In this document: in pieces, positions 59,412 to 61,244 of the stretch | How positions within the stretch are numbered: position 1 is the stretch's first letter | How the letters are laid out: each line of letters opens with the position of its first letter | Sequence record: PP925828.1 | Direction: 5' to 3' (one strand) | Source: Escherichia phage SpoonbillGilly | DNA length: 64,000 bases | Notes under the pieces: model-generated | Databases searched by the model: none | Told to the model about the DNA's origin: nothing | What the model saw: the letters and a program-made list of their open reading frames with translations, nothing else | Translations under genes and position numbers: made by a program

Positions 59412-59574
59412 TTTAGAAAATATGCTTATGGAGCAGTGGAATGCTGGGTATAATGCTGGAGTAGCTACCTGTATTGCTGGTTTGGATATGCTTATTAAGC
59501 AAGAGAAGGTTCGCCCAGAAGAAGCAATTCTGCTCCAAAATATCATCGAAGGATTCAAGCAAGGAATTGTATAA
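59380..59574 (+). CDS. hypothetical protein
   Basis: start placed at ATG 59380 after GGAGG. Confidence 0.4.
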   Translation: MDFLNQNLKSNLENMLMEQWNAGYNAGVATCIAGLDMLIKQEKVRPEEAILLQNIIEGFKQGIV

Positions 59575-60449
59575 TGCGTAGACTAATCGTTGTTAGGGGT
59601 GCAGGTTTGAGTGTAGATAGTGGTGTTCGTGCTTTCCGTACTGATACTGCTAGTGGGAAATCCTTGTGGGATGAGTACGATCTAGAGGAAGTATGTAGCT
59701 TGCCTAACTTTGAAGCTGGCTTCCGTCGCTTCTGTGGTGAAGATGATCCTAACTACTTCAGTGCTCGTTTCCCTGGCATTGATGAAGATGGTAACGATCT
59801 GTATCTCAAGACTCATGAGTTCTACAACATGCGTCGTCAGGAATTACAGACTGTTGAGCCTAACATTGCCCATCTGCGAATTGCAGAATGGTTCCAGCGT
59901 TATGGTGCGGATAGCGTGAAGAACTTCACTACTAACGTTGATGACCTTATGGAACGTGCTGGTATCCCTCGTGATGAAATCATTCACGCTCACGGGTACT
60001 TGAAAGAGGTGATCTATCGTCAGGGTCGCAACCAAATCATCGAAGATGTTGGGTATACTGCGATTGCCCCTGAGGATTACGAATGGGTAAAACCAAACGT
60101 AACATTCTTTGGTGAGACGGCTCCGTGGTATATGGGTCAGATTAACCTGTTTGATACACTTACTAGCAATGATATGGTTATTGTAGTAGGTTGTAGCAAC
60201 CAAGTAATCGACTTCAACTGGGAGCTATTTCCTGCTGTATGTCGTGGAACTAAGATGATGGTTGTTAACCCACAAGTTCGTTATGACGAACAGCTTGAGT
60301 ATGAGAAACGTGGTGTTACTGTATGGCGTGCTGGAGCTGCCGAAGTTTTTGGTAATAAACACTTTATTGATCAAGTTGAAGCTTTTATGGAGGGAAATAT
60401 TTATGTCCCAGAAAAGCATGTGGGATCTTTTAGTATGGCCAGATGGTAG
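59574..60449 (+). CDS. Sir2-family (sirtuin-like) NAD-dependent protein
   Basis: 291 aa; 'GAGLSVDSGVRAFR', 'TTNVDDL', 'HAHG' motifs. Confidence 0.8.
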   Translation: MRRLIVVRGAGLSVDSGVRAFRTDTASGKSLWDEYDLEEVCSLPNFEAGFRRFCGEDDPNYFSARFPGIDEDGNDLYLKTHEFYNMRRQELQTVEPNIAHLRIAEWFQRYGADSVKNFTTNVDDLMERAGIPRDEIIHAHGYLKEVIYRQGRNQIIEDVGYTAIAPEDYEWVKPNVTFFGETAPWYMGQINLFDTLTSNDMVIVVGCSNQVIDFNWELFPAVCRGTKMMVVNPQVRYDEQLEYEKRGVTVWRAGAAEVFGNKHFIDQVEAFMEGNIYVPEKHVGSFSMARW

Positions 60450-60585
60450 TTGGTGCTACCGTTTCGAATTTGCTACTGATGACTTCTCATGGAAGAGTGA
60501 TGATTTCTGCGTTATCTATGAGGATACAGCAGAATGGAAAGAGTTCCTTATTAAGGAGGGAGAATATGGTGAAGAAGATTTTTAA
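60403..60585 (+). CDS. hypothetical protein
   Basis: start placed at ATG 60403 after GGAGGG; overlaps Sir2 3' end. Confidence 0.4.
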   Translation: MSQKSMWDLLVWPDGSWCYRFEFATDDFSWKSDDFCVIYEDTAEWKEFLIKEGEYGEEDF

Positions 60586-60751
60586 GGGTATCTGGAAAGG
60601 TCTAGTATGGTTTGTCAACCTAATCGGTATGATTACCATTTATTCTCTGTTCCTATCTGTTATGTGGGGTAAAGGTGAATTGAAGGTTCCAGTTCCTTTT
60701 ACTGATGAAGTTAAAGTCTGGACGTGGGATGCTACTGGTGGAAATATGTAA
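60566..60751 (+). CDS. hypothetical small membrane protein
   Basis: start placed at ATG 60566 after AAGGAGGG. Confidence 0.4.
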   Translation: MVKKIFKGIWKGLVWFVNLIGMITIYSLFLSVMWGKGELKVPVPFTDEVKVWTWDATGGNM

Positions 60752-61244
60752 TACTCCTGTGATTTTCCTGGATATTGATGGGGTGCTCAATTCGAGCATC
60801 TCTCACCATCATGCTCCAGACAGTGAAAAGCTGTTCTTTGGCAGTGATTGGGTTTATAAGCCATTACTCCAGGCTTTTCAGAACTTTCTTAAACCCTCCC
60901 CAATAATGATTGTTGGGGTCTCTTCATGGTTTTCTGTACGAAATGAAATGGAGAACGTTCAGATTATGACCGGACTCGGTTTGATCGATCGTTTTCTTGG
61001 TACAACAGATTTTACTGGTGGCGGTTTATCTCGTGGTAATTCTATATTACGTTTCGTAGAAAAACATAAGCTCAAGCATTGGTGCGTCCTAGATGATGCT
61101 GGTGCTATGATGTACCAATTTCCTACTGTTATTGTAAATGGCAGGACTGGAATAAACCTTCAAGATTTAAATGCTATCAGCTATATGCTGGAATTTAGTC
61201 CAGATCTTGAAATGTGTAAGGCTCTTCAGAAACTCAAGGTGTAA
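60705..61244 (+). CDS. HAD-like hydrolase (start uncertain)
   Basis: 'VIFLDIDGVLN' HAD motif I; no convincing RBS at either candidate ATG. Confidence 0.5.
   Translation: MKLKSGRGMLLVEICNTPVIFLDIDGVLNSSISHHHAPDSEKLFFGSDWVYKPLLQAFQNFLKPSPIMIVGVSSWFSVRNEMENVQIMTGLGLIDRFLGTTDFTGGGLSRGNSILRFVEKHKLKHWCVLDDAGAMMYQFPTVIVNGRTGINLQDLNAISYMLEFSPDLEMCKALQKLKV

Follow-up and report, generated by a model that had tools for sequence, protein, structure and literature searches.

A distinct clade of viral sirtuins, found in three types of gene neighbourhood, has been described by Iyer, Burroughs, Anantharaman and Aravind (2022; Viruses 14:1977, section 3.7.3; PMC9503650), who proposed that the sirtuin removes 2'-phosphates from RNA in the manner of KptA, while accessory enzymes would make the RNA end ready or else act on the ADPr>P product. 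The third of their types, a sirtuin with a SAK-type HAD as in Escherichia phage SP15, is the arrangement that we find in Escherichia phage SpoonbillGilly (sequence record PP925828.1), of which a stretch of 64,000 nucleotides (nt), hereafter the window, was analysed. Two genes of the window, Sir2 and HAD, are the subject of this work:

59574..60449, plus strand: sirtuin of the CobB/SIRT5 type (class III) without zinc-binding Cys; 291 amino acids (aa), ATG start
60729..61244, plus strand: capless HAD phosphatase of the HAD_SAK_2 family; the longest open reading frame (ORF) begins at 60705 and has 179 aa

With their catalytic residues intact, the two very probably form a module of an active sirtuin and an active HAD phosphatase. 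The sirtuin is zinc-less and CobB-derived, and together with HAD it is a conserved but dispensable accessory module in a T5-like operon. The pairing of Sir2 with HAD and its RNA-repair prediction were already published in 2022 (PMC9503650). That study, like ours, was computational; we add the zinc-less state, the acidic charge, a mosaic of alleles, and links of HAD and Sir2 to NARP1-type genes.

The window belongs to Epseptimavirus (Demerecviridae, T5-like), and the 3.4 kb around Sir2-HAD are 98-99% identical to those of many Salmonella, Escherichia and Klebsiella phages: 442 GenBank records match this region and 188 cover most of it. In matching records the Sir2 ORF already bears labels such as 'Sir2-like protein', 'NAD-dependent protein deacetylase of SIR2 family' or 'SIRT5', and in T5 itself the sirtuin gene is T5p100, annotated 'NAD-dependent protein deacetylases SIR2 family'. 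A 2015 genome note lists a 'Sir2-like regulator protein' among the core T5-like genes (PMC4342426). Annotation of the sirtuin gene goes back to the T5 genome of 2005 and now extends to hundreds of records, so that the gene is already known; tblastn finds 978 phage records with the sirtuin and 465 with the HAD. RefSeq records such as NC_027297.1, as well as PHROG-based annotation, place the name 'Sir2 (NAD-dependent deacetylase)' on the HAD gene (60705-61244) instead. This mislabelling arises because phrog_18062, a family of 92-aa fragments, bears that name; what the gene encodes is a HAD and not a sirtuin.

The sirtuin and its HAD partner

The sirtuin ORF matches Pfam SIR2 (PF02146; E 8.8e-22, 78.3 bits with a cutoff of 24), which is its sole Pfam match, the KptA family profile giving none. 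Among PHROGs it matches phrog_2162 'Sir2' (E 1e-105), and NCBIfam deacylase models match at E 1e-24, yet under their equivalog cutoffs. The NAD+-binding motif GAGxSxxSGIxxFR reads GAGLSVDSGVRAFR at residues 9-22 (nt 59598-59639), the TQNxD motif appears as TTNVD, with Thr replacing Gln, at residues 119-123 (nt 59928-59942), and the HAHG at 138-141 (nt 59985-59996) holds the catalytic His, H140. Further motifs are FYNMRR (83-88), FFGE (178-181), VGCS (205-208) and VVNP (230-233). An earlier note, made from the sequence alone, had recognised a sirtuin here by its GAGxS..SG..FR, TxxxD and HG fingerprints, and the Pfam match and the located motifs bear it out.

Conservation was assessed over 62 phage sirtuin homologues of 55-99% identity. 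Residues S13, S16, F21, R22, Y84, R87, R88, N121, D123, H140, G141, F179, E181, G206, S208 and N232 are invariant in all of them. Y84 and R87, aligned to the FYNARR of CobB, constitute the YxxR pair of class III sirtuins; such a pair is the signature of that class, and in SIRT5 and CobB it binds the carboxylate group of succinyl- or malonyl-lysine. Variability within the protein is highest in an insertion at residues 48-79. The architecture is that of a stand-alone enzyme of 283-291 aa with no sensor domain.

Among solved structures E. coli CobB (1s5p, E 2e-16) is the best sequence relative; next come archaeal Sir2Af, SIRT5, Sir2Tm and SIRT2/3. The alignment with CobB has 34% identity, and GAGxSxxSGxxxFR, FYNxRR, TxNxD, HxHG, FGE, GxS and N all line up. 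Absence of the catalytic residues, which the earlier note had allowed for, is thus not what the alignment gives, the full set being aligned to CobB. Of the two features that the note had singled out for checking, the catalytic His is present (H140, invariant in the 62 homologues) and the zinc Cys are not: none of the four CobB zinc-ligand positions carries Cys in the phage sirtuin, 7 residues of the ribbon are deleted, and across the 62 homologues there is no conserved Cys in the zinc-ribbon stretch (residues 141-176). The clade has only two conserved Cys, C41 (62/62), which aligns to Ala76 of CobB, and C207 (53/62). An AlphaFold2 (AF2) model built from the 62-sequence alignment, with a predicted local distance difference test score (pLDDT) of 86.5, still predicts the beta-strands of the small domain. 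When this model is compared with the PDB by Foldseek, the top matches are the CobB structures 6rxq and 1s5p (E 2e-15; target-normalised template modelling score, TM, 0.83), and the 50 best fold matches are of the deacylase type throughout (CobB, Sir2Af, SIRT5, SIRT2/3 and Hst2).

The comparison with CobB and SIRT5 (PDB 1s5p, 6rxq and 3riy) can therefore be drawn closely. The phage sirtuin shares with them the GAGxSxxSGxxxFR motif, the YxxR anion-binding pair, TxNxD, the catalytic His, FGE, GxS and the Asn. It differs from them in the loss of the four zinc Cys and of the 7-residue ribbon segment, in the variable insertion of ~30 residues, in the Thr that stands for the Gln of TQNxD, and in its invariant Cys41.

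The gene in the window is slightly longer than its relatives. The usual TGA stop reads GGA at 60423 (codon 284; T to G relative to Stitch and Klebsiella phage 150049), and because of this the protein has 291 aa where relatives have 283, with the 8 residues GSFSMARW added. The same base change also turns a Cys into Trp in the overlapping small ORF at 60403-60585.

For the second gene, the earlier note had pointed to a HAD-like protein with a DxDGxL motif behind some small ORFs, and this too stands: two ORFs lie between, a DIDGVL motif is found at residues 23-28, and the ORF 60705-61244 matches Pfam HAD_SAK_2 (PF18143; E 1.5e-19), described by Pfam as 'HAD domain in Swiss Army Knife RNA repair proteins', a family that reportedly goes back to Burroughs and Aravind in 2016. 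The real start of the gene is probably the ATG at 60729, judging from the annotation of phage Stitch and from the homologue P0124. All four HAD motifs (D23xD25, as nucleophile and acid; S73/S74; R110; D130/D131) are invariant or nearly so in 28 homologues, and the Rossmannoid fold is confirmed, with no cap domain; a profile search against PDB sequences found no sequence-level relative at E up to 1. The phosphatase domain of T4 Pnkp is likewise a capless, DxD-type HAD acyl-phosphatase with four motifs; unlike T4 Pnkp, the HAD of T5-like phages has no kinase domain or ligase attached or adjacent. UniRef names the protein 'RNA repair protein'; for PF18143, the association with RNA repair comes from its Pfam name and from Iyer et al. 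(2022).

HAD_SAK_2 is a very large family of mostly stand-alone proteins (13,680 cluster representatives at E up to 1e-3); the multidomain relatives found here comprise tandem HAD repeats, one Metallophos fusion and one pentapeptide-repeat fusion, and are uninformative as to RNA repair. The gene contexts of HAD homologues are mixed: Sir2 in some, NARP1-type genes in others, and in one case an RNA ligase at a distance of 3 kb; four more contexts (L071, L074, L075 and L076) were uninformative.

Linkage, allele exchange and other phage lineages

A search with the sirtuin alignment gave 59 IMG/VR loci, of which 31 are T5-like, with nrdD upstream. In 28 of these 31 the HAD gene lies just downstream of Sir2, the type 3 arrangement again; the exceptions (L012, L013 and L021) lack HAD and retain Sir2 together with the pair of DUF7415 genes that follows. 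The Sir2 and HAD ORFs abut or overlap in L042, L044, L045 and L047, and a divergent T5-like contig without nrdD or DUF7415 (L072) has the reversed order HAD-orf-Sir2. In phage DT57C there remains a 90-aa 'defective' Sir2 (L077 2468-2740), which is a fusion of the C-terminal parts of Sir2 and HAD; a single deletion has therefore removed both genes. DT57C is thus a natural Sir2-HAD double mutant of a well-studied T5-like phage. Its DUF7415 pair is retained. Taken together, the linkage, the gene order and the case of DT57C indicate that the Sir2-HAD module is conserved, linked and dispensable in the laboratory.

The module is also a mosaic. Nucleotide identity to phage T5_ev219 (L007) is 90% up to 59697, near codon 41 of Sir2, and 68% over 59808-60234; similarity is then undetectable as far as 60739, at the start of HAD, from where it is 82%. 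The proteins follow the same profile: NrdD and the three small ORFs upstream of Sir2 are 90-98% identical, Sir2 and the small orf60 behind it 50-51%, HAD 90%, and the DUF7415 proteins 73%. We conclude that the Sir2-orf60(-orf61) segment is an exchanged allele cassette, with breakpoints inside Sir2 and at the start of HAD.

The same sirtuin clade, at 44-55% identity, occurs in phage FV3 and in 11 IMG/VR loci of ~145-kb myoviruses (V5-like), where the cassette runs Metallophos, RNA ligase 1 (PF09511), cREC_REC 'cyclic-phosphate processing' (PF20274), AAA_33 kinase, Sir2 and DNA ligase, with MazG further on. This is the type 2 neighbourhood of Iyer et al. (2022), with RNA ligase, cREC, kinase and MazG in V5-like phages, found here again independently. 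The window itself encodes a 196-aa 'phosphoesterase' (16870-17460), considered as a counterpart of the Metallophos protein of the V5-like cassette; its similarity is marginal (E 0.014) and it was not used as evidence. In a third lineage, Escherichia phage ECO340P2 (phAPEC8-like) encodes, 4 kb upstream of its sirtuin and on the same strand, an Acb2_Tad1_hairpin protein of the anti-CBASS/anti-Thoeris sponge family (L005 3940-4215).

A possible role in RNA repair, and its rivals

Following Iyer et al. (2022), we propose that the module serves the repair of damaged RNA, most likely tRNA, and assign this reading a probability of about 0.4. In such a mechanism the sirtuin would catalyse a two-step reaction like that of Tpt1/KptA. 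The 2'-phosphate of the RNA would attack C1'' of NAD+ with release of nicotinamide, after which the 2''-OH of the ADP-ribose, activated by His140, would attack the phosphate. The HAD would then either strip terminal 2' or 3' phosphates from broken RNA ends or dephosphorylate the ADP-ribose phosphate by-product. The group bound by the invariant anion pair Y84/R87 could, accordingly with such chemistry, be a phosphate. A Tpt1/KptA-type reaction parallels the deacylation mechanism of sirtuins, and the chemistry proposed here is alike in its NAD+ dependence, nicotinamide release, attack by the ADP-ribose 2''-OH and cyclic product. The folds are unrelated, Tpt1/KptA having an ADP-ribosyltransferase fold and the phage sirtuin a Rossmann-type one, so that the phage sirtuin does not belong to the Tpt1/KptA family and Tpt1/KptA is a functional analogue at most (for the Tpt1/KptA chemistry, see PMC11417386). 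Repair of RNA ends is favoured because of the gene neighbourhoods, namely the heal-and-seal cassettes and the pairing with HAD_SAK_2. This phage also carries a large tRNA cluster.

Several observations weigh against this proposal. To our knowledge no sirtuin acts on RNA, and literature searches found no experimental work on the T5-type phage sirtuin or on any member of its clade. No RNA ligase or polynucleotide kinase lies next to Sir2-HAD in T5-like phages, and RNA-repair genes are missing from the surroundings of the sirtuin in 11 phAPEC8-like loci; the genes around it there match no Pfam family and one matches the PHROG 'DNA methyltransferase', which is uninformative. The phage sirtuins are acidic throughout, with isoelectric points (pI) of 4.6-6.05 and net charges of -6 to -20, whereas E. 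coli KptA is basic (pI 9.4). By fold the HAD comes closest to the protein phosphatases MDP-1, SCP1 and UBLCP1 and not to T4 Pnkp, and no ligase or kinase fusion is found among the top 150 HAD_SAK_2 relatives. Finally, the active site would be explained most simply by an ordinary class III deacylase, and its conservation, as far as the residues tell, needs no change of substrate.

Since the rivals turn in part on NAD+ metabolism, the relevant genes of this and other phages have to be considered. The window contains a salvage pair, 20 kb from Sir2-HAD, on the opposite strand and at the end of the tRNA cluster, whose two genes overlap by 14 nt:

38222..38914, minus strand: pnuC; Pfam NMN_transporter, E 3e-43
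38901..40007, minus strand: nadR; AAA_28 and CTP_transf_like domains

A PnuC-like and NadR-like pair of a BASEL phage constitutes NARP3, shown by experiment to import nicotinamide riboside, rebuild NAD+ and defeat the Sir2-HerA defence (Yan et al., Sci Adv 2026; PMC13464706); that paper is silent on the phage's own sirtuin. The NARP3 proteins studied are Bas30_86/87, and the NadR of the window is 99.7% identical to bas26_0086 of BASEL phage GreteKellenberger. As in NARP3, an adjacent PnuC-like transporter and bifunctional NadR-like enzyme are encoded by the phage; unlike a pathway linked to Sir2, the NARP3-type pair is here a separate unit with an independent distribution. NadR is found at 90% or more identity in ~204 records, against the 465 with HAD, and the Tequintavirus T5_ev219 keeps Sir2-HAD and has no pnuC-nadR; it follows that the two are distributed independently, and on this ground we reject a functional tie of pnuC-nadR to Sir2. 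In T5_ev219 (L068 32744-32797) nadR is reduced to its first 18 codons (83% identity), which form the start of a 435-nt ORF, so that Epseptimavirus and Tequintavirus differ by an indel of the pnuC-nadR cassette. The NAD+ theme suggested in the earlier note is thus real as regards the salvage genes; its coordination with Sir2 is weak, given the distance, the opposite strands and the lack of the pair in T5_ev219.

A second NAD+ pathway is of more direct interest here. The phage pair of a Prs-like and a Nampt-like gene is NARP1 (Adps and Namat), which converts ADP-ribose (ADPR) via ADPR-PP to NAD+, with ADPR cyclic phosphate arising as a by-product of ADPR-PP (Osterman et al.). HAD_SAK_2 homologues (37-40% identity) of Serratia phage ChuuTotoro and of a related JGI contig lie directly upstream of, and in one operon with, a Prs-like gene and a 595-aa gene of the NAPRTase family; the loci with HAD beside a Prs-like and Nampt-like pair are L070 6001-9217 and L073 6001-9569. 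In 9 V5-like loci (L022, L026, L027, L048, L051, L060, L061, L063 and L066) the Prs-like and Nampt-like pair lies 1.3-5 kb from the sirtuin and divergent from it, upstream of position 8001. The Prs-like family is represented in 1,489 phage records, a label given at family level that does not tell the Adps from the Prs clade.

The plainest alternative to RNA repair is a phage protein lysine deacylase of the CobB type, a desuccinylase or deacetylase that would erase host or phage acyl marks early in infection, with the HAD as a second 'eraser' acting as a protein phosphatase. The nearest relatives in sequence and structure, E. coli CobB and SIRT5, argue for it, as do the invariance of all deacylation residues (Y84xxR87, the peptide-binding FGE motif and His140 included), the acidity that the phage sirtuin shares with CobB-S (pI 5.4), and the protein phosphatases at the head of the HAD fold matches; the variable insertion 48-79 and the swapping of alleles would fit a surface that recognises a protein target. 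No such target is known, however, the recurrent RNA heal-and-seal cassettes and the HAD_SAK_2 pairing are left unexplained, and the four zinc ligands, considered important to the small domain in canonical sirtuins, are lost, so that we consider this role somewhat unlikely. The pair might instead act on small metabolites of NAD+ and ADP-ribose, the HAD turning ADPR-1''-P, ADPR cyclic phosphate or 2'-phospho-ADPR into ADP-ribose, in the service of NAD+ economy or counter-defence beside NARP. Here the HAD_SAK_2 homologues upstream of the NARP1-type pair and the proximity of that pair to the sirtuin in the 9 V5-like loci are the main support; the by-product of NARP1, ADPR cyclic phosphate, is moreover the molecule released by a Tpt1-like reaction, and the genome also has a NARP3-type pair. 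Against this, the gene contexts amount to two or three independent ones, the synteny in related 145-kb phages may be inherited, the Prs-like genes are placed at family level and are putative members of the Adps clade, T5_ev219 has Sir2-HAD without a linked PnuC-NadR, and capless HADs usually act on macromolecular substrates. We hold a metabolite role to be quite unlikely.

The earlier note had framed the gene as a defence effector or a decoy and had pointed to a comparison with the SIR2 and DSR families. Sir2 domains are indeed common as NADase effectors in defence systems according to the literature, and the phage gene is dispensable (DT57C; PMC4342426) and mosaic, as conflict genes often are, so that roles as an effector that depletes NAD+, as a toxin for superinfection exclusion or as a decoy for the Sir2-based defences of the host have to be weighed. 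Like the defence SIR2 NADases (ThsA, DSR1/2, SIR2-HerA and SIR2-APAZ), the phage sirtuin has an NAD+-binding Rossmann core and no zinc ribbon Cys; unlike them, it keeps the small-domain beta-sheet and the substrate-binding motifs, acyl/anion-binding YxxR and FGE. Sequence and predicted fold place it nearest to the deacylases and not to the defence NADases. A PADLOC scan of Sir2, HAD and both DUF7415 proteins gave nothing meaningful (no Sir2 match at E up to 0.1), and the 50 best PDB fold matches include no defence SIR2. Nor is a sensor or partner (SLOG, HerA, pAgo or a DSR C-terminal domain) fused or adjacent, the neighbours being small ORFs, HAD and DUF7415. Strictly lytic phages encode the gene in an early-region operon, and some of them also rebuild NAD+ through NARP3. 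On the evidence of PADLOC, fold, motifs and context we reject the Sir2 gene as a defence-type NADase and regard the whole group of effector, toxin and decoy roles as highly improbable.

Returning to the proposed repair of RNA ends, it is possible that ADPR cyclic phosphate, which is also the product of Tpt1-type enzymes, is the common denominator of Sir2, HAD, cREC and NARP1, as the few contexts at hand would suggest. An extended form of the proposal, which we consider unlikely in its entirety, is that the zinc-less phage sirtuin would be the first sirtuin to work on nucleic acid, and that HAD_SAK_2, like cREC elsewhere, would return its by-product, and the identical one of NARP1, to ADP-ribose. 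If true, the phage would encode a cycle in which NAD+ is first spent and then regenerated, and this would unite three contexts: Sir2-HAD, HAD with the Prs-like and Nampt-like genes, and Sir2 beside the RNA-repair cassette together with those genes.

The surrounding unit and its meaning

Sir2 and HAD sit in a region annotated as early genes, and the nine ORFs of 58917-62080 look like one unit because hairpins flank them, one after nrdD and one after the second DUF7415 gene. Besides the sirtuin and the HAD, the unit and its borders comprise:

58825..58849, plus strand: terminator-like hairpin at the left edge, just 3' of nrdD; 10-bp stem with 6 GC pairs, then a T run
58917..59198, plus strand: small ORF of 93 aa, the first gene of the unit; phrog_7953, E 5e-65; 98% identical in T5_ev219
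59208..59411, plus strand: small ORF of 67 aa; phrog_5236, E 2e-46
59380..59574, plus strand: small ORF of 64 aa that ends at the Sir2 start codon; phrog_5827, E 6e-33; annotated in phage Stitch
60403..60585, plus strand: small acidic ORF (orf60) of 60 aa, pI 4.05, overlapping the 3' end of Sir2; phrog_5116, E 6e-29
60566..60751, plus strand: small basic ORF (orf61) of 61 aa; phrog_11166, E 2e-43
61247..61675, plus strand: DUF7415 protein a, 142 aa, two DUF7415 repeats; Pfam PF24187, E 9e-37
61685..62080, plus strand: DUF7415 protein b, 131 aa; Pfam PF24187, E 3e-28; paralogue of a, 31% identity
62104..62124, plus strand: terminator-like hairpin at the right edge, 3' of the second DUF7415 gene; 9-bp stem and a T run

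In phage Stitch a terminator is annotated 3' of the last gene of the unit, ~100 bp further on. Upstream of the nine ORFs there is a perfect sigma-70 promoter (56886-56914, plus strand; TTGACA-17-TATAAT, 12/12 matches), and the stretch 56806-56914 holds back-to-back near-consensus sigma-70 promoters, that of the minus strand being TTGCCA-17-TATAAT, from which nrdD and a phoH-like gene diverge.

The two ORFs that sit between the Sir2 and HAD genes, orf60 and orf61, differ in their distribution. The former co-varies with the Sir2 allele and also stands 3' of Sir2 in Klebsiella T5-like phages without HAD; it may act with the sirtuin as a partner, or regulate it. The latter is absent from T5 itself and has no match in T5_ev219. 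Both DUF7415 proteins are acidic, with two repeats each, and lie 3' of Sir2 in all T5-like loci, even those without HAD. T5_ev219 calls them 'exonuclease', a label that is probably wrong; against the PDB they gave spurious leucine-rich repeat (LRR) matches with 0 accepted stretches, and the literature search found no paper that names the family.

About a thousand sequenced phages carry this sirtuin clade, and some of them also rebuild NAD+, yet retain an enzyme that consumes it. Were the deacylase role true, a lytic phage would be rewriting the acyl-proteome of its host, which is rare. If the prediction of RNA 2'-phosphate removal is true, sirtuin chemistry would be extended to nucleic acids, and the module would represent a new phage answer to RNA-cleaving defences.

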